Positions 3,154-20,835 of a DNA stretch of 64,000 nucleotides are shown in pieces. Made by a program: the position numbers and the translations under genes. Position 1 is the stretch's first letter. Every line of letters begins with the position of its first letter. A model generated the notes under the pieces. It was not told the origin of the DNA. It did not search any database and was given only the letters and a program-made list of their open reading frames with translations. This stretch comes from a bacterium (lineage in GTDB: Bacteria > SZUA-182 > DTGQ01), in contig JBFLZW010000002.1 in assembly GCA_040755755.1 (NCBI GenBank), forward strand, positions 66,397 to 130,396, given 5' to 3'.

Positions 3154-3344
3154 GGATGTATAAATTTATCTGGTTATTTGCCTGTTGCTTATCTGACTGC
3201 ATGAGGATACGGTAACTTCAACCAGCATCATTTACGACTGATGATTTTCTTTCGGTTTATCTTGCTATTTCTCATGACCCTGAAAGCAGGGAAACTGATA
3301 AAAAGGCTGGCAATTATCGAAATATTTTTCAACCGAGAGCCCGT

Positions 3345-4241
3345 TCAGACAGCATTATTCACAAAATCCCAGAATGCCTGAGCTGGCGGAGAGAGGGTTT
3401 TCGCCAGGAGGTGCACCAGATAGAAATTCCGGGTGAGCCGGACATCGGACAGAGGGACGGATTTAACCATATTGGCCCTGGTCTCGAAGGCAAGGGCGGC
3501 CTTGGGGATAAACGAAATGCCAAGACCGGCAATCACGGCCCGCTTCACCGCCTCGATGCTGCCCAGCTCAGCCACAATCTGAAGCTCGCCGCGAGAAAGG
3601 TTTATCCGGGACAACTCGTTTTCGAAAAGACGTCTGGTCCCCGATCCCTCCTCTCTCAGAATGAGGGGAAACTCCATCACCTGCGCCAGCGTGATCTTTG
3701 GCGGCATTTGAGGAAAATGGGCAGGAGAATAGGTGAGCAGAAGCTCGTCAGTACCCATAATGCAGGAGGTAAACTGCTCTTCATCGGGTGTACTGCCGAC
3801 AGCCCCAAGCTCTATTCTCCCCAGGCAGATATCGTGGAAAATACTGCCCGTATTTCCCGAGGCCATATGAACGGTGACCTTTGGGTAAGTCTTGAGAAAC
3901 CTGACAATTATTTCCGGCAGGATATAGGAGGCCGGAATCGTGCTTGCACCAAGGCCGATTGTTCCCTCGATCCTGCCCAGAAAATTGTTGACCGCACACA
4001 TGGCTTCCTTCCGGGAAGCGATGACCTTCAATCCCTGCCGGTACAGGACTTCGCCCACCGGGGTAAGATGGACCCGGCCTTTGCGGCGGTCGAAAACCTG
4101 AGCCCCGATTTCGGATTCGACCGTCTTGATATGGGTGCTGACCGTGGACTGGCTGATGCCAAGAGTCTGCGCAGCTTCCGAGAAGCTCCCCAGCTCGGCA
4201 CAGGTGCAGAAAACCTCCAGATGATGGATATCGATATTCAT
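3345..4241 (-). CDS. LysR-family transcriptional regulator
   Basis: N-terminal HTH (LEVFCTCAELGSFSEAAQTLGISQSTVSTHIKTVE) followed by a LysR substrate-binding domain. Confidence 0.9.
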   Translation of the reverse strand: MNIDIHHLEVFCTCAELGSFSEAAQTLGISQSTVSTHIKTVESEIGAQVFDRRKGRVHLTPVGEVLYRQGLKVIASRKEAMCAVNNFLGRIEGTIGLGASTIPASYILPEIIVRFLKTYPKVTVHMASGNTGSIFHDICLGRIELGAVGSTPDEEQFTSCIMGTDELLLTYSPAHFPQMPPKITLAQVMEFPLILREEGSGTRRLFENELSRINLSRGELQIVAELGSIEAVKRAVIAGLGISFIPKAALAFETRANMVKSVPLSDVRLTRNFYLVHLLAKTLSPPAQAFWDFVNNAV

Positions 4242-4277
4242 AGAGAACTATCCTTTCTTATCTCCTTATTGTGTACT

Positions 4278-4979
4278 TTACTGGATATTATTATTATACG
4301 ATAGCTCGACTACCGTGTCAGCAATTCTCTTCACCTGATCCAGGTAATGGGAAACCGTCAGGATGGTGCAATGTTCTTTAATGTTCAGCAAAAGCTCCTC
4401 AATGACAGCTCCGGCTTTGCTATCCAAAGATGAAGTGGGTTCATCGAGGAGCAGGATTTCCGGTTCCAGAACCAGTGCCCGGGCAATACAAAGGCGTTGC
4501 TGCTGCCCGCCGGATAGAGCAAGTGCACTGTCTGCCAGCCGGTTTTTAACTTCCTCCCACAGATGGGCATTCTTCAGAGCCTGTTCAACCTTGTGACCGA
4601 TGAGACTTTTGTCTTTTATTCCAGCCAGTTTTAAGGGAAAGGCGACATTTTTATAAATGCTCATCAGCAAAGGATTGGGCACCTGAAAGACCATGCCGAC
4701 CGTCCGCCGTAATTGCGGCAGGGGATAGGACCGGCTATAAATATCATGGAAATTCCCATTAAATTTAATTTCTACCATCCCCTTCATTTTAGCCCCTGGT
4801 ATGCCTTCCCACAATCGATTGAGGGTCATCAGAAAGGTCGATTTACCGACCCCTGAAGGACCGATGATGGCAGTGATGGAATTTTCGATAAACTGGACTG
4901 TAATATCGCGAAGGACATAGTGATCATGGTATGAAAAATAGAGATGCGCAGTTTTTATCTTTACCGTCTTCTCATCCAT
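4278..4979 (-). CDS. pstB: Phosphate ABC transporter ATP-binding protein PstB
   Basis: Walker A GPSGVGKST, signature LSGGQQQRL, Walker B LLLDEP. The start was taken at the internal MDEKTVKI. Confidence 0.9.
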   Translation of the reverse strand: MDEKTVKIKTAHLYFSYHDHYVLRDITVQFIENSITAIIGPSGVGKSTFLMTLNRLWEGIPGAKMKGMVEIKFNGNFHDIYSRSYPLPQLRRTVGMVFQVPNPLLMSIYKNVAFPLKLAGIKDKSLIGHKVEQALKNAHLWEEVKNRLADSALALSGGQQQRLCIARALVLEPEILLLDEPTSSLDSKAGAVIEELLLNIKEHCTILTVSHYLDQVKRIADTVVELSYNNNIQ

Positions 4980-4984
4980 AGGGC

Positions 4985-5866
4985 TCAGACGCGATAGAGG
5001 ATTTGATAGGCCAACTGCCTTTTGATGACAAAGGCAAGCAGAAAGAGAACAATGCAAATAGTCAGGAGAATGAGCGAAGCTCCATATCCGGTCAAAAGTT
5101 CCCGGGTGTTTGAATATTCGGAGGAGATGTAATAGATGTAAAATGGGAGCGCTTCATAGGGTGAAAGCAAAGACCTGGGCAATCCGGCTGTAGCCACGAC
5201 GCCGGTGAGCATGATCACGGCTGTGTCTTCTGCACAACGGCCGATGGCCAGGACAAGGCCGCTCAGGATGCCTGAGAGCGATTGAGGAATGAGGACATAA
5301 AAGATGTTCTGAAGCTTTGTGCCCCCCAGAGCCAGGGCTGTAAGGCGTGTCTTTAAAGGCAGGCTTTCCAGAGAAACCTGAGTTGCGCGAATGATATATG
5401 GCAAGACCAAAAAAGAGAGGGATAGACTGGAGATCAAAAGGGAGGGATAGATGCGCTCGGAGTAGTGTTTATGCAGGAAAACAGCCAGGGCAAATCCTGA
5501 GAGACCAATCACGATCGAAGGAATGCTGGCCAGAATATCGAAAAAGAGATTGAAAAAGGTTTTTGTTTTACCCTGAGCATACTCCGCCAGGTAGATGCCG
5601 CAAGCCAGTCCCACCGGAGCCGCCCAACTGACAGATAAGACTACGAGACAGATGGTCCCTGCCATAGCCGGAAACAGGCCGTGAAAGACCTGTTTCCGGA
5701 AAATGAGCGCTTCGAGAGGCCTGGTTTCACCAAAGACAAGCTGCATATTTACCGTGCCAATACCTTTGAAAATCAGATAACCGATAATATACGAAATAAC
5801 GCTTACCAGAGTTATTCCACATATCCACGAAAAGACTACCACCAGCTTCTCTCCTGCCCGGTTCAC
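4985..5866 (-). CDS. pstA: Phosphate ABC transporter permease PstA
   Basis: Polytopic permease adjacent to pstB and pstC. Confidence 0.85.
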   Translation of the reverse strand: MNRAGEKLVVVFSWICGITLVSVISYIIGYLIFKGIGTVNMQLVFGETRPLEALIFRKQVFHGLFPAMAGTICLVVLSVSWAAPVGLACGIYLAEYAQGKTKTFFNLFFDILASIPSIVIGLSGFALAVFLHKHYSERIYPSLLISSLSLSFLVLPYIIRATQVSLESLPLKTRLTALALGGTKLQNIFYVLIPQSLSGILSGLVLAIGRCAEDTAVIMLTGVVATAGLPRSLLSPYEALPFYIYYISSEYSNTRELLTGYGASLILLTICIVLFLLAFVIKRQLAYQILYRV

Positions 5867-6729
5867 CTTTTTTCTCTCCCATCCCCTGATCCTGACAACG
5901 ACCGGGCTCCCAAAACAAGAATGGTCGTAAACAGATAAAGCACTATACCACAGGCAAAGATGGATTTAAATTCCAGACTTTCATAATCAGCGGCGAACAC
6001 CAGGGCGATGTGAGATGTCAAAGTTCTGGCTGAATCCAGAACCGAGCCGGGAATCTGAATTGCATTTCCGGCAAGCATCAAGGCAATAAGGGTATCGCCG
6101 AGAGATCGCCCCAGGGCAAGAATGAACCCGGTCAGGACACCCCTAAAGGCGCAGGGCAGGATGACATACAGAAATTTTTGCACTTCGGTTGCGCCTAAAG
6201 CGTCAGCAGCATCACGGTAGGATTTTGGCACATGATCAAAGCTATCGGTGAAAAACAGGATCATGGTCGGAGAAATAAGGACCGCCAGCATCAATGAAGC
6301 GGAGAGGATGCACATTCCTGAACCGCTCTGGAACATTTCCCTGATTCTGGGAACCAGAAGGAACACGCCTACAAACCCATACACAACCGTGGGTATGCCT
6401 GTCATAAGCTGAACCGCTTTTCGCAGGAACCGGCTGAATATTGCGGGACCAAGAACACTGATCAGTGCGGAACACCCCAAACTCAGCGGAAAAGCGAAGA
6501 CCAGGCTCAAACCGGCAATAGTCAGCGTGCCCGCGATCATGGGATAAATACCGTATGAACCGGAAGCGGGTTCCCACGGCTGAGCCAGGAGGTCAAAAAA
6601 ATGTCCCCCTCTGATGAGAGGGAGACCCAGGAACACCATGAATCCCAAAATGATAATAGTTAGAGAAACACTGACCACTGCCGAGAGGAGAAACAGTTTC
6701 TCGGCGATCTTTTCACGGATGGTAACCAT
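5863..6729 (-). CDS. pstC: Phosphate ABC transporter permease PstC
   Basis: Polytopic permease with 4-nt overlap onto pstA. Confidence 0.85.
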   Translation of the reverse strand: MVTIREKIAEKLFLLSAVVSVSLTIIILGFMVFLGLPLIRGGHFFDLLAQPWEPASGSYGIYPMIAGTLTIAGLSLVFAFPLSLGCSALISVLGPAIFSRFLRKAVQLMTGIPTVVYGFVGVFLLVPRIREMFQSGSGMCILSASLMLAVLISPTMILFFTDSFDHVPKSYRDAADALGATEVQKFLYVILPCAFRGVLTGFILALGRSLGDTLIALMLAGNAIQIPGSVLDSARTLTSHIALVFAADYESLEFKSIFACGIVLYLFTTILVLGARSLSGSGDGREKR

Positions 6730-6744
6730 GTGAATGGGCTGTAA

Positions 6745-7581
6745 TCATTTGACCGGGATAAAGCCATTGCTTTCAACGATCTTCTGACCTTCGGGCGTGA
6801 AAAGATAATCGATGAACTTTTTCGTCAGACCTGAAGGCTGGCCTTTGGTATTGCTGTACAACCCTCGACTGACGGTGTACTTGCCCTGTTTTACGTTATC
6901 CAGAGTTGGCAATACCCCATCGAAAGCTACCGGGGCCACCGTCTCATCGATATGGCCCACAGAGACATAGCCTATGCCATAAGGATCCTTTGCTATGGCT
7001 GATTTCATTGCTCCGTTGGAGGCGACAAAATTGGCTTTGGGAGTGATCGCCCCCTTGTCGAGGGCCTTTTCCCAGAAGACTTCACGGGTACCGCTTGCCT
7101 CGTCTCTTGTATAGACATTAATTCCCTTATCTGCTCCGCCAAGGAGTTTCCAGTTGTCGATCTTCCCTGAGAAGATATCAATAACCTGAGCTTTGGTCAG
7201 CTTTTTCACTTTGTTATCCGGATGATTAATGATACCTACACCGTCAATGGCCCACTGGAATATCGTGAGATTATACCTGGTAATTTCCTCATCGGTGGGT
7301 TTGCGTCCGGAATTCCCTATCTGGACCAGACCTTCCCCTACCTGCTTGATTCCAACCCCCGAACCACCACCGGCAATGGTTATCTGAATATCCGGATTGA
7401 CCTCCATAATCTTTTTGGCCGCCTCCTGCATCACCGGAATATGAGCTGTACCTCCGGCTATTTTCAAGGTTCCCTTTTCATCCCTGAAGGAGTCCAGTTC
7501 TCCAGCCTGTAAACTCATACCTGCGCCAATGATTAAACAAATCGTCATCGACAATGCAATCAGAATATACTTTCGCTTCAT
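6745..7581 (-). CDS. pstS: Phosphate-binding protein PstS
   Basis: Signal peptide followed by a PBP-like domain. RBS aggtaaggagag. Confidence 0.85.
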   Translation of the reverse strand: MKRKYILIALSMTICLIIGAGMSLQAGELDSFRDEKGTLKIAGGTAHIPVMQEAAKKIMEVNPDIQITIAGGGSGVGIKQVGEGLVQIGNSGRKPTDEEITRYNLTIFQWAIDGVGIINHPDNKVKKLTKAQVIDIFSGKIDNWKLLGGADKGINVYTRDEASGTREVFWEKALDKGAITPKANFVASNGAMKSAIAKDPYGIGYVSVGHIDETVAPVAFDGVLPTLDNVKQGKYTVSRGLYSNTKGQPSGLTKKFIDYLFTPEGQKIVESNGFIPVK

Positions 7582-7633
7582 GACACTCTCTCCTTACCTG
7601 ATGGTGATAATCGTAGAACTGGCAATACCAGTT

Positions 7634-8779
7634 TTAACTGTTATTTCTCATATAAGACTTCAGGACCTTGATGGCAATATCGATCTCCCGCTCGGTGTTA
7701 AAGTAGGAGAGGGAGAACCGGACCGTGCCGTGGGGAAAGGTGCCCAGGGTCTGGTGCGCCAGAGGCGCGCAGTGCAGGCCCGGCCTGGTGCATATTTCCC
7801 ACTCGCGGTCAAGGTAATGGGAAACCTCGGAAGCCATTGCCCCTTTCAGATTGAACGATACTACAGCCACCCGGTCGGCTTCGGGAGCATAAACCTGAGC
7901 TTCATCGATTTGCTTCAGCTTATCGAGCAGATAGTGTGTCAACTGATGCTCCCGGTCGATGATCTGCTCAAGCCCTTCGGCCAAAATGAATTCAATGCCG
8001 GCTGCAAGACCCGCGAATCCCGGAGTATTGACTGTCCCGGCCTCGAATTTATCCGGTGGAAAGTCCGGCTGGACGGTCTTTTCCGACAGGCTGCCGGTGC
8101 CGCCGCACAGAAAAGGCTCCAAGGTATCAGTATCCCTGATGATCAGAGCCCCGGTTCCCTGCGGTCCGAAAAGATGCTTATGCCCGGTTATGGCCAGAAA
8201 ATCGAATGGGGTCCTGGCCAGATCGATCTGTATTGCCCCGGCACCCTGGGCAGCATCGACCAGAAGCTTCACCCCCCTGGACCGGCTTACCTGGTATATC
8301 CCATCCAGGTCAAGCTTTGTGCCGCATACATTGGAAGCGGCGGTAACCGCAATGAGCCTGGTGTCAGCACTGATGGCTGCTTCGATCTTTTCCGCAGATA
8401 CCAGGCCGTTTCTGTCTCCCTCGACAATGGTGAGCCTGATCAGGCCCTTGTCTTTCAGGCGGTTGAGCGGCCTCAGAACGGAATTATGCTCCATCGAGGT
8501 GGCTATCGCCTCACCCCCTCCCGATGCCAGCGTCCCGTAAATAGCCAGATTCAATGCCTCGGTCGCATTTTTGGTCAGGATGATTTTTTCCGTTTCGGGA
8601 AAGTTGAAAAGCTCACCAATGGCCTCACGTGCCCGATAGATAATCTCGGCAGCCCTGATGGACAGAGAATGCGAAGACCTGCCCGGATTGGCATTGGCAT
8701 GCTTCAGACAATCGACCATAGCCTCGATCACTGATGGAGGCTTGGTGCCCGAAGTGGCTGCATGGTCAAAATAAATCAT
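7634..8779 (-). CDS. Cysteine desulfurase (aminotransferase class V, NifS/SufS-like; possible selenocysteine lyase)
   Basis: MIYFDHAATSGTKP, and the PLP-lysine context ITGHKHLFGPQGTGAL. Confidence 0.85.
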   Translation of the reverse strand: MIYFDHAATSGTKPPSVIEAMVDCLKHANANPGRSSHSLSIRAAEIIYRAREAIGELFNFPETEKIILTKNATEALNLAIYGTLASGGGEAIATSMEHNSVLRPLNRLKDKGLIRLTIVEGDRNGLVSAEKIEAAISADTRLIAVTAASNVCGTKLDLDGIYQVSRSRGVKLLVDAAQGAGAIQIDLARTPFDFLAITGHKHLFGPQGTGALIIRDTDTLEPFLCGGTGSLSEKTVQPDFPPDKFEAGTVNTPGFAGLAAGIEFILAEGLEQIIDREHQLTHYLLDKLKQIDEAQVYAPEADRVAVVSFNLKGAMASEVSHYLDREWEICTRPGLHCAPLAHQTLGTFPHGTVRFSLSYFNTEREIDIAIKVLKSYMRNNS

Positions 8780-8819
8780 GGCTGGTTCTCTGTTTGTGTT
8801 CTTTGCTGAAAGTGGGTAC

Positions 8820-9467
8820 CTAAATCGTAATCACTTTGGCTGATTTGAGCAAAGTTTCGGAAATATCGTACATGTTGGAAATCCTGCCAGCGCCAAGCTC
8901 CTGGGTGAGATTGAAGTAATTCAGGCAGGTTCCGCAGACCAGAAGCTCAATCCCTTTCTCTTCAAGCTCCTGCAGGCAGGACAGGGTCGGGGCTCCTTTA
9001 ACCGCCAGTTTCACTCCGCTGTTCATGAAACAGATGGTTTTCGGCTGGACGGACAGATCCCGGAGAGTAGCGACAAACGCATCGAGAAGGTTCATGCCCA
9101 GCTCATCACTGCCGGACCCGATCCGGTCCCTGGTGATAAAAACCGCCGTCCCGGTTCCGGAAGGATGATCGGTGCAGGAGTAATCTTCAGGCGCAAGCTC
9201 CACGGCTGACAGAGCGGTTTCCCGGCCAGCAGCCGGACTCTTTTGATCAGAGCCGCCCCTGGTATAAATGTGAAATTCGTTCCCTCGCTCTTCCACCCGG
9301 TCAATTTCAACCCCATTGCGCGTAAGAAACCGGGTGACATTCTCCTTCGAGGCCGCGCTGCTGACCATCACCACAAGAGGCTGACCAGCCGCCTGCTCGA
9401 AAGCTTCCTTTGTTTTCACTACTGGTTTGGGACAATCCAAACCCCGTGCATCAACCGTTATAGCCAT
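8820..9467 (-). CDS. YedF-like selenium/sulfur-metabolism protein (TusA-like N-domain with CPxP, fused to a DsrE/DsrF-like C-domain)
   Basis: N-terminal ARGLDCPKPVVKTKEAF (TusA CPxP motif). The C-terminal ~120 aa are DsrE-like. Confidence 0.7.
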   Translation of the reverse strand: MAITVDARGLDCPKPVVKTKEAFEQAAGQPLVVMVSSAASKENVTRFLTRNGVEIDRVEERGNEFHIYTRGGSDQKSPAAGRETALSAVELAPEDYSCTDHPSGTGTAVFITRDRIGSGSDELGMNLLDAFVATLRDLSVQPKTICFMNSGVKLAVKGAPTLSCLQELEEKGIELLVCGTCLNYFNLTQELGAGRISNMYDISETLLKSAKVITI

Positions 9468-9487
9468 GCGAAATCTCCTTATGTTCC

Positions 9488-9612
9488 TGCTGACTCCCAG
9501 CTCCTGACTTCTGACTACTCTTCACTGGCCACTGATCACTGGCCACTGGTCACTCTCTCCTGACTCCTGGCTTCTGGCTTCTGGCTCCCGACTCCTGACT
9601 CCTGACTCCTGC
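9488..9612. repeat. Heptamer repeat, family A copy (overlaps the 3' end of the activase ORF)
   Basis: ctcctgacttctgact...cactggccactgatcactggccactggtcact...ctcctgactcctggcttctggcttctggctcccgactcctgactcctgactcctg. Confidence 0.6.
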
Positions 9613-10370
9613 TTTAAAGCATACACTGCCGCACCAAGCGCGCCGATAATCTGGGGATTTTCCGGCACAATCAGGTTTCCTCCCAGCCGATCCTCCAGAA
9701 GTTTTACCAGACAGGGATTCAGGGCTCCGCCACCGGCAAAGAGTATTGGCCGCCTGCGGCCAAGCCGGTTGATCATGGTCTCTATCCGCTCGACTACGGA
9801 TTGATGAACCCCCAGGGCAATGCTTTGAGGGTCTTCGCCTTTAGCCAGCAGTGAAATCACTTCAGATTCAGCAAAAACCGTGCACATGCTGGTAACCTTG
9901 ATCAAACCGCCAGCCGTAAGAGCGAAAGCTCCAAACTGGCCGATGTCAATCTCGAACGAATGAGCCATGATCTCCAGAAACCGGCCGGTTCCGGCAGCAC
10001 AGCGGTCATTGATGCCGAAATTGTCAAAGGAACCATTCCCGTCCAGAGCAATGACCTTGGTGTCCTGCCCCCCGATATCGATCACCATCCGGACATCCGG
10101 GTACAGGTAATGCGCACCCAGGGCAAAGGCTTTGATCTCGGTTATGGTCTGATCAGCCAGGTCTTTCCGGGCAAGATGCCGTCCATATCCTGTGGCCACA
10201 ATGCCGGGCCGCCCGGCCGCTTTCATAATGCCTTCTTTTTCCAGGGCGCGGCGAAGCTTTTCCAGAGGATGAACACCGCCATCCATAACCTGAAAGGCAA
10301 CCAGGCCACTCTGGTTCAAAATTACATACTTGGCCGTCCGGGAACCAAGATCAATGCCTATGGAAGTCAT
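9522..10370 (-). CDS. BadF/BadG/BcrA/BcrD-type ATPase (CoA-substrate-specific enzyme activase, HgdC-like)
   Basis: MTSIGIDLGSRTAKYV and VIDIGGQDTKVI actin-fold ATPase motifs. The last ~30 codons are encoded by the family-A repeat. Confidence 0.8.
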   Translation of the reverse strand: MTSIGIDLGSRTAKYVILNQSGLVAFQVMDGGVHPLEKLRRALEKEGIMKAAGRPGIVATGYGRHLARKDLADQTITEIKAFALGAHYLYPDVRMVIDIGGQDTKVIALDGNGSFDNFGINDRCAAGTGRFLEIMAHSFEIDIGQFGAFALTAGGLIKVTSMCTVFAESEVISLLAKGEDPQSIALGVHQSVVERIETMINRLGRRRPILFAGGGALNPCLVKLLEDRLGGNLIVPENPQIIGALGAAVYALKQESGVRSREPEARSQESGESDQWPVISGQ

Positions 10371-10398
10371 ACACTGTGGCATTGTATCATATCTTATC

Positions 10399-11673
10399 TT
10401 ACGGTTTAATCCGCTCCAGAAATGCCTCGATCCTTGTCTGAATCTGCCCCGCGTCTTCGGCGGTGTAGTCAGTCTCGATCTTCAGGACCGGAAAGCCTGC
10501 CTCTTTCAGCGCCTTTTCAACCCTGGCGTACTCCACGTTATAGGTATGGCAGAACTGAAGGGTGTTATAGATCACGCCATCGGCATGATACTCCTGAGCA
10601 TACTGGATTATCTGTTCGGTTCGCTCATGGTTCGGAGTAAAACAGGAGCAGTTTATCGACAGGTATCTCTGAGCCAGAGCATCCAGTTGGGCATTCAAAT
10701 CCGCCGCCGACTCATCGACCAGGGTTTCGAAATAGCGGGTCCCCGTGCAGGCTTCCTCGACCACTACCGCTGCCCCCAGGCTTTCGATGATATGATGCAG
10801 TTTCCAGTTGGGCACCACACTCGGACAGCCGGAAAGCATAATGCGGGGGGCATCCTTGGCAAACGGGCTGATGCCTTGTGCAATCCGGCCGGTCAGCTCT
10901 CCGGTCAGTTTATCCACCGAAGCGGTAAACCGGGCAACATCATCGTAAAACGCAACCTGTGAAATCAGCAGGGCATCTTTTCCACTGATGGGTGAGGGCT
11001 GACACTTTCGGGTTTCATACAGCCTGGCCAGGGCCCTCCTTTTATTGTTCATGAGCTCGATGGCTTTTTTCACCGCATCAAAGCTGATTTTCGTCCTTCC
11101 CGCCTCCTCCAGCATTTTCACCAGCCTGTCAAGCTCTGCGCGATATACTCCCCGGCCTGCATCATCCTTCCTGTGGGGGACCTGCACGACCCTGGTGGGA
11201 ACGAAATCGTTTAAAATTTCCCAGGCTTTCTTTTTGCCGTCGCAGGTGGTTTCTCCGAGCAGAAAGTCAGCGGATTCAAAATAGGGGCAGATTTTCGCCA
11301 GCTTAAACCCGACCGATGACTTTATCAGCGGGCAGATGTTTCTCGGCAGGTATTCTTCCGCCTTGGAGATGGTGAGGTCCGCCCCGCCGCACAGGCCGAT
11401 CGGAAGACCTCCAGCCGCAAGGATCAACTCATCGGGGATGAAAAGACAAAAAGCTCCGGCAATGAATCCTCCCCTGGCCTTGTGCTCCAGGAGCTCCCTG
11501 ATACGAAGACCATGAACCTCGCTCAGGACAAAGTCAAAATACTCCATAGCTTCGGGCCGGTTATCCTGCTTCAGGTAAATGTCAGAATAGACCTGCCCAA
11601 GAACGTTCAGAAGGTTGCAATGCGGATCAAGATCAATATTCAGGCTTCTCCACATATCGTCGTAATTACTCAT
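10399..11673 (-). CDS. 2-hydroxyacyl-CoA dehydratase family protein (HgdA/HgdB-like component)
   Basis: A 424-aa protein with dehydratase-family Cys-containing regions, directly upstream of the activase. Confidence 0.7.
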   Translation of the reverse strand: MSNYDDMWRSLNIDLDPHCNLLNVLGQVYSDIYLKQDNRPEAMEYFDFVLSEVHGLRIRELLEHKARGGFIAGAFCLFIPDELILAAGGLPIGLCGGADLTISKAEEYLPRNICPLIKSSVGFKLAKICPYFESADFLLGETTCDGKKKAWEILNDFVPTRVVQVPHRKDDAGRGVYRAELDRLVKMLEEAGRTKISFDAVKKAIELMNNKRRALARLYETRKCQPSPISGKDALLISQVAFYDDVARFTASVDKLTGELTGRIAQGISPFAKDAPRIMLSGCPSVVPNWKLHHIIESLGAAVVVEEACTGTRYFETLVDESAADLNAQLDALAQRYLSINCSCFTPNHERTEQIIQYAQEYHADGVIYNTLQFCHTYNVEYARVEKALKEAGFPVLKIETDYTAEDAGQIQTRIEAFLERIKP

Positions 11674-11690
11674 TATCTGCCCTCGTTACA

Positions 11691-11957
11691 TTAGATGAAT
11701 TTGAATTTCTTCTTCTTTTCCGCCTCATCATCCCTCTCCCACCGAAAAATCTGATCGATCTCCACCTGGCTGTCGGTGAGGATTTTTTCAATCTCTTCCC
11801 TTTCCGGCCAGGGCACCTTGCAGCAAAAACCGCAGTTGGAGCTGAATTCCCTCGGCACCGGGATCATTTCCGGTTTTCTGCCGCTCTTGTCAAGCACCCG
11901 TTTGGCCTTCAGGGCAAAATGGGTGGTGTGAAAGGTGATGATTGCATAGACTGCCAT
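11691..11957 (-). CDS. DUF3343 (putative Se/S carrier-like) small protein
   Basis: MAVYAIITFHTTHFALKAKRVLDKSGRKPEMIPVPREFSSNCGFC fits the DUF3343 pattern. Start taken at the ATG with GAGG 8 nt upstream. Confidence 0.65.
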   Translation of the reverse strand: MAVYAIITFHTTHFALKAKRVLDKSGRKPEMIPVPREFSSNCGFCCKVPWPEREEIEKILTDSQVEIDQIFRWERDDEAEKKKKFKFI

Positions 11958-12099
11958 ATACAAGCCTCGGAATGAGGAAAAATCAAAGCTGCACCAGGAT
12001 ATTGCTAATACTCGATAATACCCAATAGTTTTGGGAAGTCAAGGGCATTATTGAAGAAATCTATAATGCCTATAGATGTATTCAATATCACGGTGGTGC

Positions 12100-12855
12100 T
12101 TATTTCCGTTCCGCGGCAGAATCGCCGGTGATGGATAGAACTACAGAGATAACCACCTCCGGTGTGGTTTTACTGTCTGTTTTAACAACTACCTGACCAC
12201 TCGTAAGGGAGCTGTTGTCCATTGCTTTTGCTGACACAATAATCGTCAGGGATTCGTTCGGTTTGAGACTTGCCGGCAGTTTGGTCTGCTCCGATGCTGC
12301 TTTGGCTGTAACAGCAGCGGCAGGAGTGGTTTCAATCGATAAAATCGACATGCTCTCCTGGCCGATATTCTTCAGCACAACCTCCTGAGTGGCATCCTGG
12401 TCCTTTGCTGCCCGGTTGAAATAAACATTGGCAGGAGTGGCTTCCAGATCGACTTTGACTAATGCTTCAATAGTTATTTGCGTAATTGGATTAACCGGGT
12501 CATTGGAATGGACATAGATGACTTTCTGTTGTTTCCCCTTGCGATGGGCGGAATTGAAAGTGACTTTAATCTGCCCGGTCTCACCCGGATTGATTGTTTT
12601 TTGAGAAAGCACAGCAGCGGTGCATCCGCAGGATGTCTTTACTTGTTCGATGTTCAGCGCCTGGTCTCCGGTATTCTGAAAGGTAAAAACATGGGTAACC
12701 GCTTTATTCTGGTAAATTTGCCCAAAATCGAACGAGGCATTGGAGAATGCGATACGGGGGGCGGCTGCGGCAGGTGCCGGACAGAATACGGACAACACTA
12801 TGGGAAAACTTATCAGGAGGACTGATAAGACTATTAAGGTTCTATTCTTTTTCAT
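12100..12855 (-). CDS. Secreted DUF1573-domain protein (two copies)
   Basis: Signal peptide, then the hallmark SCGCT motif (VKTSCGCTAA). Confidence 0.7.
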   Translation of the reverse strand: MKKNRTLIVLSVLLISFPIVLSVFCPAPAAAAPRIAFSNASFDFGQIYQNKAVTHVFTFQNTGDQALNIEQVKTSCGCTAAVLSQKTINPGETGQIKVTFNSAHRKGKQQKVIYVHSNDPVNPITQITIEALVKVDLEATPANVYFNRAAKDQDATQEVVLKNIGQESMSILSIETTPAAAVTAKAASEQTKLPASLKPNESLTIIVSAKAMDNSSLTSGQVVVKTDSKTTPEVVISVVLSITGDSAAERK

Positions 12856-14806
12856 GGTTTATCTCTCCTTTACTTTTTGGGCCTTTACTTTTCGGGCCTC
12901 TCAGTATCCGAATATCGCCGATCCGCATGGTGAAACCAATGGAATCGAAGTATTCCAGAATCTGAATGGTTTTTATTCGGCCCAGATCCATTACTCTATC
13001 ACGAAAATCGATAACGGTAAGACTCCCTTCCTTTTGGATATATGCCTTCACCATCTCCCTGAGCTCATGGAGAGGTTGGCTATGGATGATGGTATTTGGT
13101 GCGATTCGAATGACAACACTCTGATCTATGAGCATCTTTAATAATCTGTCCACCTCCTCCCCGGCGCAATTGATATTTTGATAAAGTTGACTTATGGGCA
13201 GCGGTCTGTAACCGCTGGATAGAAGCGCCCTTTCAATTTCGCTGATAACCTTCTTCTGCCATGAACTGAACGACAGGCTATGATTGGCAAGCCTGATAGC
13301 GGGACCGTCGATCGCTATTGTCTGCCTCATCTCAAGGTCCCTGAGCAGGTGATGGAAAAGCCGGCTGTCCATTTCCCCTGCTGTCTTTGACTTGAGCAGT
13401 TCTCTCCCCATACCTTTTTCAAGAGGGTTTTGGCTGTGAAAGTCTTTCAGGGCAGCGATAATTTTTTCTTTGATATGTGTTACCTGCCTGGTGGCAATAA
13501 AGAATTCCTCATCATCAAGACAGTAAATAACGCCTTCACTCTTTAACCGGGCAAGGATATCGACGAGTTCTGACCGAGTAAGGGCGGTCTTTCGTAACAG
13601 TTCACTCTGACTGCAAGGATGGAATTGGTATCGTGAAAGTGTCTCGATGATGAAGTCCCTGAATTTTCCCTGTTCCAGGTGCTCGATCCGAGTGACTCTG
13701 CTTTTACCTTCTGAGGCACTGTACCGCCTGGGGTAAGTATCCAGGATAACTCCTCCGCCAATGGTACGGGAAGGGCTGAGAGACCGGATAATATATCTGT
13801 CGAATACCCGAGGCGAAGCCTTTTCTTCCAGCCTGAACTGGACAACAGCCATTTCACCGGGTTGAATCTTATCCCTGTCCATGCAGATCACCCTGGCTAT
13901 AATCTCGGTAGTACCGGTATGGAGGCGTACCCTGGCTTTCGTGGACAAAGGAGATGCGTTCGATTCCAGGTATCGGAGTCTGGCATCCAGTATGCCGGTG
14001 GGCATGAGGGATTCCGGCGGGGCGATGACATCTCCTCTCTTGACCTGGGAGGTGGCGATACCGGCCAGGTTAAAGCCGACCCGCTGTCCGGCATGGGCTT
14101 CTTCGACCCACTGGTTATGCACCTGAAGTCCACGGATTTTGACTTTATAACCTTCGGGATATACCATTGCTATGGCTCCGGAACTTACAGCACCATTTAC
14201 CAACGTGCCGGTAGCTATTGTGCCGTAGCCTGCTACTGAAAAAACCCGATCCACGGGAAGCCGGAATTCGCCCCTCTCAAGTTTGGTTTTCTCAACCTTG
14301 CCGGTAAGCTCCATCAGGGCCGTCTTCAATTGATCGATTCCCTCTCCGGTCCGGCATGAGCAATCGATTACCGCTGCCTCCCGGAGGAAACTCGGCTCAA
14401 CAAGCCGGGCGATTTCCCCGTGAATCAACTCCAGCCAGTCCCTGTCCACCAGATCGATCTTGTTGACTGCCACAAGGCCGTGTCTGATTCCCAGCAGGGA
14501 AAGAATATCAAGATGCTCGCTGGTCTGGGGCATGGGGCCGTCATCGGCTGCAATAACCAGTATGGCCATATCGACGCCGGATATGCCTCTGAGCATATTC
14601 TTGATAAATTTTTCGTGACCCGGACAATCGACAATACTCACCACCTGTCCATTGGGAAGCCGGCAGGGTGCAAAACCTGATTCTATCGATATTCCCCGGA
14701 CCTTTTCCTCTTTCAGCCGATCGGTGTCTATACCAGTGATGGCCTTGGTCAGAGCGGTCTTGCCATGGTCAATATGCCCGGCCAAGCCTATAACCAGATT
14801 TTTCAA
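12842..14806 (-). CDS. selB: Selenocysteine-specific elongation factor SelB
   Basis: GTPase motifs GHIDHGKT, DCPGH, NKID, then winged-helix C-terminal domains in a 654-aa protein. TTG start. The C-terminal GPKSKGPKSKG comes from a short tandem repeat. Confidence 0.9.
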   Translation of the reverse strand: MKNLVIGLAGHIDHGKTALTKAITGIDTDRLKEEKVRGISIESGFAPCRLPNGQVVSIVDCPGHEKFIKNMLRGISGVDMAILVIAADDGPMPQTSEHLDILSLLGIRHGLVAVNKIDLVDRDWLELIHGEIARLVEPSFLREAAVIDCSCRTGEGIDQLKTALMELTGKVEKTKLERGEFRLPVDRVFSVAGYGTIATGTLVNGAVSSGAIAMVYPEGYKVKIRGLQVHNQWVEEAHAGQRVGFNLAGIATSQVKRGDVIAPPESLMPTGILDARLRYLESNASPLSTKARVRLHTGTTEIIARVICMDRDKIQPGEMAVVQFRLEEKASPRVFDRYIIRSLSPSRTIGGGVILDTYPRRYSASEGKSRVTRIEHLEQGKFRDFIIETLSRYQFHPCSQSELLRKTALTRSELVDILARLKSEGVIYCLDDEEFFIATRQVTHIKEKIIAALKDFHSQNPLEKGMGRELLKSKTAGEMDSRLFHHLLRDLEMRQTIAIDGPAIRLANHSLSFSSWQKKVISEIERALLSSGYRPLPISQLYQNINCAGEEVDRLLKMLIDQSVVIRIAPNTIIHSQPLHELREMVKAYIQKEGSLTVIDFRDRVMDLGRIKTIQILEYFDSIGFTMRIGDIRILRGPKSKGPKSKGEINHEKE

Positions 14807-14863
14807 TGGAAGGTCACCCGACTTTTTATCATCTCTACTCTTGTGTCATAGGGAGAGAGGTAA

Positions 14864-14954
14864 AGAGGGTAAGGGGAATCGAACCTCCTACGGCCCTTGC
14901 ACAGGCCGACCAGCGGATTTGAAGTCCGTGGGGCACACCAGTACCATTACCCTC
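14864..14954 (-). tRNA. selC: tRNA-Sec (anticodon UCA)
   Basis: 91 nt. The 8-bp acceptor stem GAGGGTAA/TTACCCTC, the anticodon loop cUUCAaa, a long variable arm and the GGTTCGATTCC T-arm are all present. It sits immediately upstream of selB. Confidence 0.75.
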
Positions 14955-15505
14955 GGTCATTCTCGATCATGACAGCTCGACAGCGTAAACAGTGTAAAAA
15001 CTTTGGAAAATGATAAGTAATATTAAATATATCAGAAACTTACCGTGACCGGGTGATATAAGGAAACATGCTCGAAGTGGAGTGAGGATTGGAAGATGCA
15101 TGCAGTTGCGGACCGGATCGAATATAGCCGACCTGCATTCAGGGATTGAAAAACGGATGGAATTTAAAAATGAAGTCTGATTTTTTTGAAAAGATTGCAC
15201 TATAGGTAAAGATAGATATGAGAAAAGCATAATGGGTTTCCTGTTATTGCCCCGACCACCGGTCAGAGTTACCTGATACAGAGTCAATATTGTCCAACAA
15301 ATCCGTGTAAGTGAACCTTTTTCAAGTACATAATTGTTCCTCTCTTAAAATTTGGAATCAATTTATGGAAACTACCGCTTCTTTACCCTACCGACATTCA
15401 TTAATGAATACAATTAAACCTGTTAATAGAGATTCCTTAAAAATATAGGGGATATTTTTACCATAACCTGGATTATACGTCAATAAGGAATTTTCAATTT
15501 TCATC

Positions 15506-15534
15506 TTGACATCGAAAATGCATGGAATTAAAAT
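15506..15534 (+). promoter_or_regulatory. Sigma70-type promoter (TTGACA-17-TAAAAT)
   Basis: ttgacatcgaaaatgcatggaattaaaat, located about 35 nt upstream of the riboswitch aptamer. Confidence 0.6.
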
Positions 15535-15567
15535 GAGCCCAAAAGCCGAAATTGCTGATAATTGCAT

Positions 15568-15630
15568 AAAGGCGAGGGAGTTCCGCCATAAACCGTTCCG
15601 GCCAGGGCCGGAGCTAATGACTCCTACGAG
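15568..15630 (+). promoter_or_regulatory. Fluoride riboswitch (crcB RNA motif)
   Basis: GGCGAGGGAGUUCCGCCAUAAAC...GGAGCUAAUGACUCCUAC. The B. cereus crcB aptamer is GGCGAUGGAGUUCGCCAUAAACGC...AGCUAAUGACUCCUAC, with the pseudoknot GGAGU/ACUCC. Confidence 0.85.
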
Positions 15631-15682
15631 CAGGTAAATATACCCTTGGGAGGAGTTATACAGTTGCTGGCAATCAAACTTT

Positions 15683-15723
15683 GAGCTCTTACCAGGGCCT
15701 AGTACCTGGTGAGAGCTTTTTTT
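15683..15723 (+). terminator. Rho-independent terminator (riboswitch expression platform)
   Basis: gagctcttaccagg-gcctagta-cctggtgagagc followed by ttttttt. Confidence 0.7.
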
Positions 15724-15785
15724 ACCCCGTAGCAGGAAGAACCTGTAACGGTAGGGGGGATTTATCTCAAAGGGAGGAACAAGAA

Positions 15786-15929
15786 ATGGCAGAAATCAAA
15801 GAAGTGAAGGCAAGAGAGATGTTATACCATTTCTCACCTGAAATTGAGCATAAACCGGCCAAAGGAGTCAGAATACAGAATACAGAAGTCAGAAGTCAGG
15901 AGAAACGAAAGCCTTATTCTGAATTCTGA
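15786..15929 (+). CDS. Small ORF (47 aa) downstream of the fluoride riboswitch; its 3' end runs into the family-A repeat
   Basis: Strong RBS aaagggagga then ATG. Translation MAEIKEVKAREMLYHFSPEIEHK..., with no recognisable family. Confidence 0.3.
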   Translation: MAEIKEVKAREMLYHFSPEIEHKPAKGVRIQNTEVRSQEKRKPYSEF

Positions 15930-15963
15930 CTCCTGAATTCTGACTCCTGACTCCTGAATTCTC
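15868..15963. repeat. Heptamer repeat, family A-like (CAGAATA / CAGAAGT / CTGACTC / CTGAATT units)
   Basis: cagaatacagaatacagaagtcagaagtcaggag ... ctgaattctgactcctgaattctgactcctgactcctgaattctc. Confidence 0.6.
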
Positions 15964-16202
15964 TACTTATGCTGCAGTTGAATGTCGAAAAATGGTATTA
16001 GCTCAGGGGGAAACATACGACTTGTCCTGGATTCAGGCGATGAATTTCCATAATGCGTTCTTGTTCACTTCGGTTAATGAAGCCCTTCGCAGCCTGGTGG
16101 CAATTATCAAGAGGCAAAGCAAGGCCGAACAGGGGCGTGGAGAGGGGCGCTCGTAAACTGGAGAAAAGAAGAAAAGAGAAGAAAACGGTAATTCACTTGA
16201 GA

Positions 16203-16619
16203 TTATTTTTCGGTCTCATTTTTCAGCATGGCCTCGGCAAAATCGAGGAAATCCTGCAAATGTTCCTCTACAATCCGCCTGACAATGTCAAGGTTCAGTG
16301 CCTGATAGTCGTGAACAGCAATGTTTCGGAACCCTGTCATGGCCATCATGCGTTCTGCCAGCCCTTTGGTTATCAGACCGACCCGCTGAAGCAAAGTGAA
16401 TGCATCCCTGCTTTCCTGGGGAATTCCCAGCCGGCGGAGGCGGATCTCATGCATGGCCAGGTCTATGGCTGCCTCACAGGCCCTCTGGATATTTAAAATT
16501 ATCGAGTCCTGTTTGGTATAATTCTCATAGAGGTTTTTCTCGTCTTCTCCATATTCTTCACGTATGCGGGCTATGCATCGCTCAATGGTGGCTGCTTTAT
16601 TGAGTTTTACGTCGTCCAT
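16203..16619 (-). CDS. HepT-like HEPN toxin (DUF86)
   Basis: Rx4-6H motif FRNIAVHDY. Start taken at MDDVKLNK. Overlaps the end of the upstream NTase gene. Confidence 0.75.
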   Translation of the reverse strand: MDDVKLNKAATIERCIARIREEYGEDEKNLYENYTKQDSIILNIQRACEAAIDLAMHEIRLRRLGIPQESRDAFTLLQRVGLITKGLAERMMAMTGFRNIAVHDYQALNLDIVRRIVEEHLQDFLDFAEAMLKNETEK

Positions 16620-17059: not shown

Positions 17060-17145
17060 GCTCTCACTCCTCTGCTTTTCTCTGTATACCTCTGTGCCTC
17101 AGTGTCTCTGTGGTGTCCTTTGTTTTGTCTTGTCTTTGTCTTTAC
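17060..17145. repeat. Heptamer repeat, family B (CTCTGTG units plus GTGTCCTTTGT / TTTGT tail)
   Basis: ctcactcctctgcttttctctgtatacctctgtgcctcagtgtctctgtggtgtcctttgttttgtc. Near-identical copies at 47550-47625 and 30970-31032 (reverse complement). Confidence 0.65.
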
Positions 17146-19202: not shown

Positions 19203-19220
19203 GCTCCATCTATACCTTTT

Positions 19221-20792: not shown

Positions 20793-20835
20793 TGCTTCTT
20801 CCCTTCAGAATCCCTGCGCCTGACGCTCCGCGCCA

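Follow-up and report, generated by a model that had tools for sequence, protein, structure and literature searches.

On the minus strand of the 64,000-nucleotide stretch of DNA analyzed here (the window), two genes taken at first for a 2-hydroxyacyl-CoA-dehydratase-like enzyme and its ATP-dependent activase lie among genes of selenium and sulfur trafficking. The question raised by this locus is which reaction such a pair might carry out in that company. A first-pass annotation had proposed an ATP-dependent system for the insertion or reduction of selenium or sulfur, an interpretation that the analysis described here partly supports.

Layout of the locus

The core of the locus is a co-directional run of five genes (11957..7634, minus strand) encoding a DUF3343 protein, a PF06050 protein, a BcrAD/BadFG ATPase, YedF, and a class V desulfurase; all five open reading frames were found where the first pass had placed them. 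With their flanks, the features are as follows.

14864..14954, minus strand: tRNA-Sec (ARAGORN and Rfam RF01852)
12842..14806, minus strand: selB (TIGR00475)
12100..12855, minus strand: DUF1573/OS_HP2-like exported protein (NF041425)
12015..12042, minus strand: candidate sigma-70-like promoter, TTGACT-16-TATTAT, upstream of DUF3343 (consensus match only)
11691..11957, minus strand: DUF3343 (PF11823) protein, small putative selenium/sulfur carrier, 88 aa; first gene of the unit
10399..11673, minus strand: class I double-cubane cluster protein (DCCP), predicted [8Fe-9S] enzyme, 424 aa (NF040772)
9522..10382, minus strand: DCCP reductase (DCCP-R), ASKHA "archerase" ATPase with a predicted bridging [4Fe-4S] cluster, 286 aa (TIGR00241)
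8820..9467, minus strand: YedF-type selenium metabolism protein, TusA domain fused to a DsrE-like domain, 215 aa (TIGR03527)
7634..8779, minus strand: class V PLP cysteine desulfurase/selenocysteine lyase family, EF2568/SclA-type clade, 381 aa (TIGR01977)
4278..7581, minus strand: pstSCAB-like ABC transporter, between the desulfurase and LysR genes (family scores; PstS structure matches)
3345..4241, minus strand: selenium metabolism-associated LysR, conserved last gene of the unit (NF040786)

The gaps within the five-gene run are, in gene order, 17, 16, 54, and 40 nt, the second of these separating DCCP from the start of the ATPase gene downstream of it. pstS starts 52 nt downstream of the desulfurase gene, exactly the distance first reported. 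Upstream of the run, the promoter candidate matches 10 of 12 consensus positions and lies in the 142-nt gap before DUF3343. Both selB and tRNA-Sec had been placed 3 kb away; tRNA-Sec does lie about 2.9 kb upstream of DUF3343, but selB is nearer, as only 885 nt and a single DUF1573 gene lie between its stop codon and the start of DUF3343. No copy of SelD was found within the 64-kb window. The locus is a selenium utilization operon with a backbone of tRNA-Sec, selB, DUF1573, DUF3343, YedF, an SclA-like desulfurase/selenocysteine lyase, and a selenium-type LysR, and DCCP and DCCP-R form a two-gene cassette that is inserted between DUF3343 and YedF in this lineage.

Identity of the reductase pair

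The description of the PF06050 protein as an HgdAB-like dehydratase holds for the family, but within it the protein belongs to the class I DCCPs and not to the 2-hydroxyacyl-CoA dehydratases. It scores 478.8 bits on the DCCP model NF040772 (cut-off, 350) and matches PDB entries 7YYL_C (E value, 4.5e-135) and 6ENO_A (E value, 1.7e-134) over residues 6 to 423, including the N-terminal extension. Cys76, Cys95, Cys114, Cys144, Cys309, Cys342, and Cys375 do not vary among 27 homologues and line up with cysteines in 6ENO and 7YYL, and their spacing is close to that of the motif published by Haft and Gwadz. This seven-cysteine motif comprises six cluster ligands and a seventh cysteine beside the cluster, and Cys95 is the counterpart of Cys94, which takes the seventh position in DCCP_Ch (PMC7317905). 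The protein also bears the mark of class I, an N-terminal helical extension closing the CoA channel, which is absent from YjiM-like class II proteins. In 6ENO, this extension blocks the channel (PMC7317905), and the alignment with 6ENO begins at residue 6 in both proteins and is free of gaps in its N-terminal part. At 424 aa, the protein can be set against the short paralogues of about 360 aa that are found beside some DCCPs; neither a second PF06050 gene in the cluster nor a second DCCP-like open reading frame in the window was found. We conclude from these sequence comparisons that the PF06050 protein is a single-subunit class I DCCP with a predicted [8Fe-9S] cluster.

A dehydratase and activase acting on a CoA thioester in amino acid fermentation would agree with the PF06050 membership, with the TIGR00241 neighbor, and with the name that many database entries still carry. 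The single PF06050 gene, which leaves no alpha/beta pair, the score of only 120 bits on the HadC model NF052456 (cut-off, 700), and the full alignment of the channel-blocking N-terminal extension nevertheless effectively refute this identity. The benzoyl-CoA reductase subunit models likewise score far under their cut-offs, and no CoA-transferase or acyl-CoA genes are located nearby, so that a dehydratase function is extremely improbable.

The ATPase scores 244 bits on TIGR00241 (cut-off, 125), and its structure matches include HadI (4EHT; 1.5e-57), HgdC (1HUX; 9e-51), and DCCP-R (7YYL_E; 8e-49). Cys128 and Cys167, the predicted ligands of the bridging [4Fe-4S] cluster, align with cysteines conserved in HadI and HgdC, and the ATP motifs GIDLGS and DIGGQD are both present.

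The selenium/sulfur genes and the flanking genes

The remaining family assignments of the first pass, namely, DUF3343, YedF, the activase, and the class V enzyme, were borne out, as the cut-offs of PF11823, TIGR03527, TIGR00241, and TIGR01977 were all passed. The DUF3343 protein (75.1 bits; cut-off, 25) retains the motif P-x-P-R-x-x-S-x-x-C-G, in which Cys42-Gly43 is invariant in 31 homologues, and its AF2 model (pLDDT, 80.8) has a ferredoxin-like beta-alpha-beta-beta-alpha-beta fold; by these features it is a putative selenium/sulfur carrier. YedF (196.6 bits; cut-off, 110) contains a PF01206 domain (64 bits), which matches TusA-like structures and carries Cys12 in its CPxP motif (CPKP), and a DsrE-like PF02635 domain (31.7 bits) with C178-G-T-C181. 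The desulfurase (429.6 bits; cut-off, 377) has a PLP lysine at Lys201 (GHK) and an active-site cysteine at Cys337 (GLHCA), and on the narrow SclA model NF040779 it reaches 323 bits, against an exception-level cut-off of 525.

On the upstream side, tRNA-Sec scores 58.9 bits on RF01852, selB 349 bits on TIGR00475, and the DUF1573 protein 98.3 bits on NF041425, against a cut-off of 100; the order tRNA-Sec, selB, DUF1573 recurs in two close relatives, L081 and L090. On the downstream side, LysR scores 268.2 bits on NF040786 (cut-off, 250) and is 68 to 71% identical to the LysR proteins of L081, L082, and L090, the gene directly following the desulfurase gene in the first two and following pst in the third. 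The pst genes, whose PstS product matches solved structures, are present in L090 and absent from L081 and L082. Hence, pstSCAB is a variable cassette, and the conserved downstream partner is the selenium-type LysR at 4241..3345.

Linkage of DCCP to selenium/sulfur genes

In the close relatives L081 and L082, the five genes are arranged as in the window, and LysR comes next. In a sample of 80 DCCP loci, each from a different species, neighbors within 3 kb were compared with those in 705 kb of farther flank. DUF3343, YedF, or the desulfurase was found within 3 kb of DCCP in 52 of the 80 loci, and all DUF3343 matches (37/37) fell within this distance and on the same strand, with none in the farther flank. 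YedF occurred 20 times near DCCP versus 2 times far from it and SelD 13 versus 4 times; a selenium-type LysR lay within 3 kb in 16 loci and a DsrE-like gene in 8, and a partner ATPase gene did so in 57/80. The linkage of DCCP to selenium/sulfur-trafficking genes therefore exceeds chance, and the possibility that the reductase pair would prove independent of these genes in relatives was not borne out, either in L081 and L082 or in the larger sample.

The association was found in at least seven phyla, bacterial and archaeal, and the gene orders vary among Bacillota, Actinomycetota, Chloroflexota, WOR-3, Thermodesulfobacteriota, Bathyarchaeota, and Methanocorpusculum. In many Lachnospiraceae loci, the desulfurase gene is located immediately upstream of DCCP, and in Bacillota, DUF3343 is found between DCCP and the ATPase gene. 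SelD directly adjoins DCCP in Bathyarchaeota, Chloroflexota, and the Thermodesulfovibrionales locus L087, in which DCCP, the ATPase, SelD (with Sec at codon 16), DUF3343, YedF, and the desulfurase form one run beside selB. About a third of the loci, including that of Desulfosporosinus (L084), have no selenium/sulfur gene near DCCP. In Carboxydothermus islandicus (L083), whose DCCP is 97% identical to the characterized DCCP_Ch, DCCP and the ATPase gene are followed by glycine cleavage genes, and the upstream side is cut off by the contig end. A neighbor-joining tree places DCCP_Ch within the radiation that also contains the selenium-linked DCCPs.

The tight linkage noticed at first is thus recurrent, but it is modular rather than obligate. 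In L090, the selB-DUF1573-DUF3343-YedF-desulfurase-pst-LysR backbone is identical but DCCP and the ATPase are missing, which shows an insertion or loss exactly inside the DUF3343-YedF-desulfurase trio, and among about 15 long loci with the YedF trio, only 2 contain DCCP. Since the trio often occurs without it, DCCP is probably an accessory that would open a refractory selenium source and not a core step.

A possible role in selenide supply

DCCP and DCCP-R constitute a published ATP-dependent two-component reductase (PMC7317905, PMC9351452), and the in vivo selenium donor of SelD is still an open question (PMC13188914). Our tentative reading, to which we assign a probability of about 45%, is that DCCP serves as an accessory ATP-driven reductase that supplies the SelD pathway with selenide, a selenium substrate of DCCP being suggested by gene context only. 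In such a scheme, the PLP enzyme would strip Se(0) from selenocysteine or another donor to give an enzyme-bound perselenide, and this zero-valent selenium would be carried on cysteines of DUF3343 and of both YedF domains (TusA and DsrE). DCCP-R would spend MgATP to deliver a low-potential electron to the [8Fe-9S] cluster in DCCP. DCCP would then reduce a small selenium species, either oxidized or zero-valent, and the resulting selenide would be the substrate of SelD. Candidate substrates are carrier-delivered Se(0) or perselenide, polyselenide, and elemental selenium, and the conserved seventh cysteine (Cys95) or an exchangeable mu2 bridge position may take part. Several points weigh against this scheme, among them the DCCP loci with no selenium/sulfur gene nearby, the many YedF trios that lack DCCP, and the failure to find SelD in the window. 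Moreover, thiols can generally reduce perselenides, so that it is not obvious why ATP should be needed, and since the channels of class I DCCPs are narrow, direct access of a protein-bound perselenide is questionable. The Se(0)/HSe- potential is very negative, which would justify coupling to ATP. The recurrence of the pairing across many anaerobic phyla suggests selenium as the natural substrate of DCCP.

Other readings of the locus have to be weighed against this one. DCCP and DCCP-R might reduce an unrelated small molecule, such as an organometallic or other refractory compound, and cluster with the selenium genes either because both are accessory traits of anaerobes or because a selenoenzyme catalyzes a step that precedes or follows that of DCCP. 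That the cassette and the trio each also occur alone, that DCCPs are also associated with the selenocysteine-assisted organometallic (SAO) locus, and that glycine cleavage genes are the neighbors in Carboxydothermus would fit such co-location. We consider it unlikely, as the cassette lies inside one operon, between DUF3343 and YedF, the DUF3343 matches are confined to the immediate, same-strand vicinity of DCCP, at least seven phyla show the pairing, with gene orders that differ, and the genes involved are those of selenium donation (SelD, YedF, and desulfurase) and not selenoenzymes. A role in cofactor maturation, in which the desulfurase, YedF, and DUF3343 would supply sulfur (or selenium) for assembly or repair of the double-cubane cluster, for example, at its mu2 bridging atom, has a parallel in NifS and nitrogenase and would leave the DCCP substrate unrelated to selenium. 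The positions of the desulfurase gene in Lachnospiraceae and of DUF3343 in Bacillota are in line with it, and a selenium-bridged cluster, a formal possibility in the work of Haft and Gwadz, would explain the link to SelD. However, DCCP_Ch obtained its cluster in E. coli without DUF3343, YedF, or desulfurase partners (PMC7317905), the trio is far commoner without DCCP, beside SelD or selB, the unit has no Fe-S scaffold gene, and a role in sulfur supply leaves the adjacency of SelD and DCCP in Bathyarchaeota, Chloroflexota, and L087 unexplained, all of which makes this reading quite doubtful.

It is also conceivable that the system handles sulfur rather than selenium, either reducing persulfide or polysulfide with the help of ATP or relaying sulfur for thiolation, given that TusA, DsrE, and class V desulfurases are classical sulfur relay families and that DUF3343 also occurs in organisms without SelD (PMC5322559). 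This seems improbable in view of the selenium-specific equivalog model passed by YedF, the selenium-LysR model passed by LysR, the presence of selB and tRNA-Sec in the same gene run, and the SelD genes adjacent in many related loci. Phylogenetic profiling by Haft and Gwadz, who placed 955 of 970 high-scoring DCCPs in SelD-containing genomes, points the same way (bioRxiv 10.1101/2022.07.06.499078).

Comparison with known systems

The arrangement had been described at first pass as not belonging to a described pathway. It is correct that no pathway has been described, but in addition to the co-occurrence of DCCP and SelD, a possible selenium role of DCCP was already raised by Haft and Gwadz, in whose preprint YedF, DUF3343, and desulfurases receive no mention (bioRxiv 10.1101/2022.07.06.499078). 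Furthermore, Table 1 of Lin et al. 2015 includes an activase and a "dehydratase subunit" among the STRING partners of YedF/DUF3343 in Slackia, where the dehydratase-like and activase genes are listed without discussion (PMC5322559). DCCP in a selenium operon is a testable lead and not a new kind of system.

The window pair has the PF06050 fold in common with the 2-hydroxyacyl-CoA dehydratases and class I benzoyl-CoA reductases (HgdAB/HgdC, HadBC/HadI, and BcrABCD), and in each case an ATP-driven "archerase" donates the electrons. The dehydratases and benzoyl-CoA reductases are heterodimers in which CoA esters bind at [4Fe-4S] clusters, whereas the window DCCP is of a homodimer type encoded by one gene, its CoA channel is closed, and it carries a double-cubane motif. 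Nitrogenase (Fe protein and MoFe protein, with NifS) is similar by analogy only, in that low-potential electrons are delivered to a complex Fe-S cluster by ATP coupling and a dedicated class V desulfurase is encoded nearby; its ATPase fold is unrelated (MinD type rather than ASKHA), its scaffold genes have no counterpart here, and its substrate differs.

Closer is the DCCP_Ch/DCCP-R pair of Carboxydothermus hydrogenoformans (PDB 6ENO and 7YYL) described by Jeoung and Dobbek, which has the seven cysteines, the class I N-terminal extension, and an adjacent two-cysteine ASKHA ATPase. Unlike DCCP-R_Ch, the window ATPase has a low-complexity C-terminal tail and is somewhat nearer to HadI (1.5e-57) than to DCCP-R_Ch (8e-49), and the downstream neighbors of the C. 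islandicus DCCP are glycine cleavage genes and not selenium/sulfur carriers. The DCCPs of the SAO locus (Haft and Gwadz 2022) are likewise NF040772 proteins and show a strong co-occurrence with SelD, but the genes beside the window cluster are selB, DUF1573, pst, and LysR in place of an SAO-type transporter and lyase set, and the partners of the window DCCP are selenium donor and carrier proteins. Finally, the published DUF3343-YedF-Sec lyase neighborhood (PMC5322559; E. faecalis selD operon with SclA/EF2568) has the same three families in the same order beside selB, SelD, and selenium-type LysR genes, and the Slackia heliotrinireducens cluster (PMC5322559, Table 1) even includes an activase and "dehydratase subunits." The window desulfurase differs from SclA in its score on the narrow model (323 versus a cut-off of 525), and in the window, L081, and L082, the trio is split by the DCCP cassette between DUF3343 and YedF.

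The five-gene unit and its surroundings

The window carries five co-directional open reading frames (ORFs) on the minus strand, running from 11957 to 7634 and separated by gaps of 17, 16, 54, and 40 nt, close to the tRNA-Sec and selB genes on the same strand.

Features of the five-gene unit and its upstream region, with profile scores
14954..14864, minus strand: tRNA-Sec
14806..12842, minus strand: selB
Within the 142-nt gap 5' of the DUF3343 gene: promoter-like site TTGACT-16-TATTAT, a consensus-like candidate
11957..11691, minus strand: DUF3343 "Se/S carrier" (PF11823, 75 against a cut-off of 25)
11673..10399, minus strand: "dehydratase" gene, here assigned to the double-cubane cluster proteins (DCCPs) (PF06050, 405 bits)
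10382..9522, minus strand: activase ATPase (TIGR00241, 244 against a cut-off of 125)
9467..8820, minus strand: YedF, with TusA and DsrE domains (TIGR03527, 197 against a cut-off of 110)
8779..7634, minus strand: EF2568-type desulfurase (TIGR01977, 430 against a cut-off of 377)

The first-pass annotation, made from the sequence alone, had described this run as a selenium/sulfur cluster lying next to pstS. Both points hold, as pstS starts 52 nt past the desulfurase stop codon, and curated profiles recovered every family that had been named. On the narrow SclA selenocysteine-lyase model, the desulfurase scores 323, under the cut-off of 525. Only 885 nt separate the end of selB from the start of the DUF3343 gene, with one DUF1573/OS_HP2-like gene in between. 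This gene (12100..12855, minus strand), which encodes an exported protein, has a 14-nt overlap with the stop-codon end of selB and also follows selB in two related loci, L081 and L090; its product scores 98.3 on NF041425 (cut-off, 100) and has a C-G-C motif. Some members of the OS_HP2 family are selenoproteins.

An Rfam scan of 3000..16500 revealed no regulatory RNA in the cluster, the matches being tRNA-Sec and an unrelated fluoride riboswitch (15562..15633, plus strand; RF01734, 47.6 bits; gathering score, 34) located 5' of a short ORF (15681..15929). When all loci were translated with TGA readthrough to look for Sec at conserved Cys positions of DCCP, DUF3343, YedF, the desulfurase, and the ATPase, the matches were all spurious. 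The AF2 model of DUF3343 (pLDDT, 80.8) predicts a generic ferredoxin-like fold. A sequence search of the PDB with this protein found nothing, and since the best Foldseek match in the PDB reached only an E value of 0.015 (PII, PstA, and ACT-domain proteins), it has no specific structural homologue that would provide a mechanistic clue. Heptamer tandem repeats (CACTGGC, 4.6 copies; CTCCTGA, 7.9 copies) at the 3' terminus of this ATPase gene (9522..9611) encode a low-complexity C-terminal tail, and the window contains nine copies of the 9-mer CTCCTGACT, where 0.5 would be expected.

Identity of the PF06050 protein and its ATPase

The 424-amino-acid PF06050 protein had been labeled an HgdAB-like dehydratase, a name that has to be given up. 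It scores 478.8 bits on NF040772, the model for double-cubane-cluster-containing anaerobic reductases (cut-off, 350), whereas the HadC dehydratase model gives it just 120 (cut-off, 700), and it is the single PF06050 gene of the unit, with no alpha/beta pair; a true acyl-CoA dehydratase is thus hardly credible. From residue 6 to the C terminus, it aligns with 6ENO and 7YYL, the crystal structures of the Carboxydothermus hydrogenoformans protein DCCP_Ch (E value of about 1e-135), and the alignment includes the N-terminal extension that defines class I and closes the CoA channel in 6ENO. Cys76, 95, 114, 144, 309, 342, and 375 form the seven-cysteine motif, which is intact in the window protein and invariant across 27 diverse homologues; Cys95 corresponds to Cys94 of DCCP_Ch, the nonligand seventh cysteine beside the cluster (PMC7317905). 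The ATPase retains Cys128 and Cys167, expected to hold the bridging [4Fe-4S] cluster, together with the ASKHA nucleotide motifs, and matches the structures of HadI, HgdC, and the ATP-dependent reductase partner DCCP-R. These sequence features identify the pair as a DCCP/DCCP-R system.

Such systems are published ATP-dependent two-component reductases that reduce acetylene (at 4.3 per min), azide, and hydrazine in vitro. They are structurally well studied and use ATP to reach very low potentials in a nitrogenase-like manner, while the physiological function of DCCP is explicitly called unknown (PMC7317905, PMC9351452).

Gene neighborhoods of DCCP

A survey limited to one genome per species yielded 80 DCCP loci (49 to 59% identity) from Bacillota, Actinomycetota, Chloroflexota, WOR-3, Thermodesulfobacteriota, other deltaproteobacterial groups, Synergistaceae, Bathyarchaeota, and Methanocorpusculum. 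Neighbors were identified from six-frame ORFs with iterative HMMs and by clustering without prior labels, with 422 kb of flanking sequence sampled in the near zone (<3 kb) and 705 kb in the far zone (3 to 10 kb).

Neighbors of DCCP in the near and far zones
ATPase: 57 near, 0 far
DUF3343: 37 near (all on the same strand, 34 within 300 bp), 0 far
YedF-like: 20 near, 2 far
Desulfurase: 16 near, 6 far
LysR: 16 near, 1 far
SelD: 13 near, 4 far
DsrE-like: 8 near, 0 far

At least one member of the trio of DUF3343, YedF, and desulfurase lies within 3 kb of DCCP in 52 of the 80 loci, or in 37/55 when only loci with full flanks are counted, and the selenium-LysR model accepts the LysR representative tested. 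In WOR-3 (L001), Actinomycetes (L009), Thermoleophilia (L010), and a Eubacterium (L079), DCCP is found together with all four partners, in a different order in each. Culturable species with a linked arrangement include Clostridium sporogenes (L030), C. carboxidivorans (L031), Intestinimonas butyriciproducens (L018), and Peptoclostridium litorale (L042). The selenium-linked DCCPs do not form a clade of their own on a neighbor-joining tree: linked and unlinked proteins are interspersed, with DCCP_Ch falling within the same radiation. The locus of Carboxydothermus islandicus, consulted for the surroundings of the characterized enzyme, speaks neither for nor against a selenium context because the contig ends 320 nt upstream.

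In six Bathyarchaeota loci (L013, L014, L017, L020, L033, and L036), genes for LysR, a DsrE-like protein, a short TusA-like protein, DCCP, and SelD stand side by side, and no activase ATPase was found within 4 kb of DCCP. A second, shorter DCCP paralogue (about 355 to 365 amino acids, no N-terminal extension) adjoins the class I DCCP and ATPase genes in L002, L007, L030, L031, L044, L050, L053, L054, and L075; these short proteins form a separate clade, which may be the YjiM-like class II.

Gene neighborhoods of the trio

For the reverse survey, close relatives of DUF3343 were looked up and metagenomes were scanned with the window YedF. The commonest layout is (SelD)-DUF3343-YedF-desulfurase, frequently beside selB and without DCCP; among about 15 trio loci of at least 6 kb, only two contain DCCP or the ATPase. 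Two loci, L087 and L090, are particularly telling. L087, from a Thermodesulfovibrionales metagenome-assembled genome, encodes DCCP, ATPase, SelD, DUF3343, YedF, and desulfurase in one co-directional run beside selB (4910..10066); codon 16 of the SelD gene is an in-frame TGA (Sec). This run is followed by the gene for a protein with a CCG/ferredoxin domain and a VTT domain.

Closer to the window, the 139-kb JGI contig L090 encodes selB, DUF1573, DUF3343, YedF, desulfurase, PstSCAB, and LysR proteins that are 72 to 87% identical to those of the window, but DCCP and the ATPase are absent between DUF3343 and YedF. In L081 and L082, with DCCPs 82% and 85% identical to that of the window, the five-gene unit is followed directly by LysR, with no pst genes. 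Compared with the window, these loci therefore define a shared backbone, selB-DUF1573-DUF3343-YedF-desulfurase-LysR(Se), with the DCCP-ATPase pair and pstSCAB as cassettes that some loci have and others lack. The window LysR (4241..3345, minus strand) scores 268 bits on NF040786, the selenium metabolism-associated LysR model (cut-off, 250). The linkage proposed by the first-pass annotation is thus real and conserved in relatives, but it is modular. It is also asymmetric, a Se/S partner being present at about 65% of DCCP loci and DCCP at just about 13% of trio loci, which gives DCCP the appearance of an accessory plugged into selenium trafficking.

The pstSCAB-like ABC transporter (4278..7581, minus strand) separates the desulfurase gene from the selenium-type LysR gene, as it does in L090 (9055..12443), and scores at or under the curated cut-offs (PstS, 206.4 against 206.6; PstA, 185 against 193; PstB, 259 against 343). 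PstS aligns well with ordinary phosphate-binding PstS structures, and we do not claim it as a selenium oxyanion binder.

Proposed role of DCCP and alternative explanations

Our best reading, to which we give a probability of about 45%, is that DCCP supplies SelD, which synthesizes selenophosphate, with selenide by reducing a small selenium species, and that YedF and DUF3343 carry zero-valent selenium. The protein identities, the intact ligand and catalytic residues, the operon layout, and the conserved but modular synteny with selenium-donor genes are established; the steps of the mechanism are inferred. In this scheme, the pyridoxal phosphate enzyme would convert selenocysteine or another donor into an enzyme-bound perselenide, and YedF (Cys12 in CPxP and a CGTC motif) and DUF3343 (Cys42) would carry the zero-valent selenium. 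DCCP-R would use ATP to reduce the [8Fe-9S] cluster, and DCCP would then turn the small selenium species into selenide. The Se(0)/HSe- couple is very negative, which would make a thermodynamic case for ATP coupling. Since class I DCCP channels are narrow, we argue for a small substrate rather than a CoA ester, and the accessory distribution of DCCP suggests that it opens up a refractory selenium source. It is possible, though on balance doubtful, that class I DCCPs in general act as the ATP-driven selenium reductases still missing in anaerobes, producing selenide for SelD from Se(0) delivered by DUF3343 or YedF or from elemental or poly-selenium, perhaps with transient binding at the mu2 bridge of the [8Fe-9S] cluster.

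Co-location of DCCP with selenium genes outside any shared pathway, for which the cassette-free backbone of L090 and the unlinked DCCPs speak, is improbable beside same-strand DUF3343 genes that are confined to the near zone. Somewhat less probable still is that the trio matures the DCCP cluster, as most trio loci have no DCCP. A role in sulfur rather than selenium chemistry appears quite unlikely next to selB and the selenium-type LysR, and with SelD adjacent in many related loci. If selenide formation by DCCP fails as an explanation, cofactor maturation or co-location gains weight; if it is true, it adds a new ATP-dependent step to selenium assimilation, DCCP gains a physiological substrate, and an in vivo donor route for selenophosphate synthesis is identified.

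Other features of the window

In one 827-amino-acid ORF (22230..24713, plus strand), a complete DnaJ (residues 1 to 370) and a hydrophobic, transmembrane-like segment (about 378 to 403) precede a two-PDZ-domain Do/HtrA serine protease (405 to 818), an unusual fusion of a cytoplasmic cochaperone with a periplasmic protease. A HepT-like ribonuclease and nucleotidyltransferase (MNT) pair of the toxin-antitoxin type (16203..17019, minus strand) is flanked on one side by the tRNA-Sec region and on the other by an XrtA/PEP-CTERM exopolysaccharide gene set (17142..21687).

Comparison with known systems

YedF, DUF3343, and LysR_Se were put forward as selenium genes by Lin et al. in 2015, in whose Table 1 the STRING partners of these genes in Slackia include a "CoA-substrate-specific enzyme activase" as well as "2-hydroxyglutaryl-CoA dehydratase subunits," both left undiscussed in the text (PMC5322559). 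Haft and Gwadz, who built NF040772 in 2022, found 955 of 970 high-scoring DCCPs in SelD-containing genomes and suggested that DCCP processes selenium compounds or that its cofactor is selenium bridged; YedF, DUF3343, and desulfurases are unmentioned there (bioRxiv 10.1101/2022.07.06.499078), as is selenium in the DCCP structural papers (PMC7317905, PMC9351452). In Calderihabitans, DCCP, its reductase, and a LysR-like gene share one transcription unit. The selenium connection of DCCP is thus already published, as a correlation, and to that extent the arrangement is less novel than had been proposed; the operon architecture and the pathway are without description in the literature searched. A 2026 review regards the question of which selenium form and donor serve SelD in vivo as still unresolved (PMC13188914). 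Taken together, the window, L087, and L090 provide a hypothesis at the level of the operon, in which the partner proteins are named, for both the function of DCCP and the selenium donor of SelD. The arrangement itself is widespread and uncharacterized, the window being an example of it rather than a unique system, and with the cassette inside the trio here and SelD between both modules in another phylum, the genome-wide correlation between DCCP and SelD becomes a concrete, testable idea.
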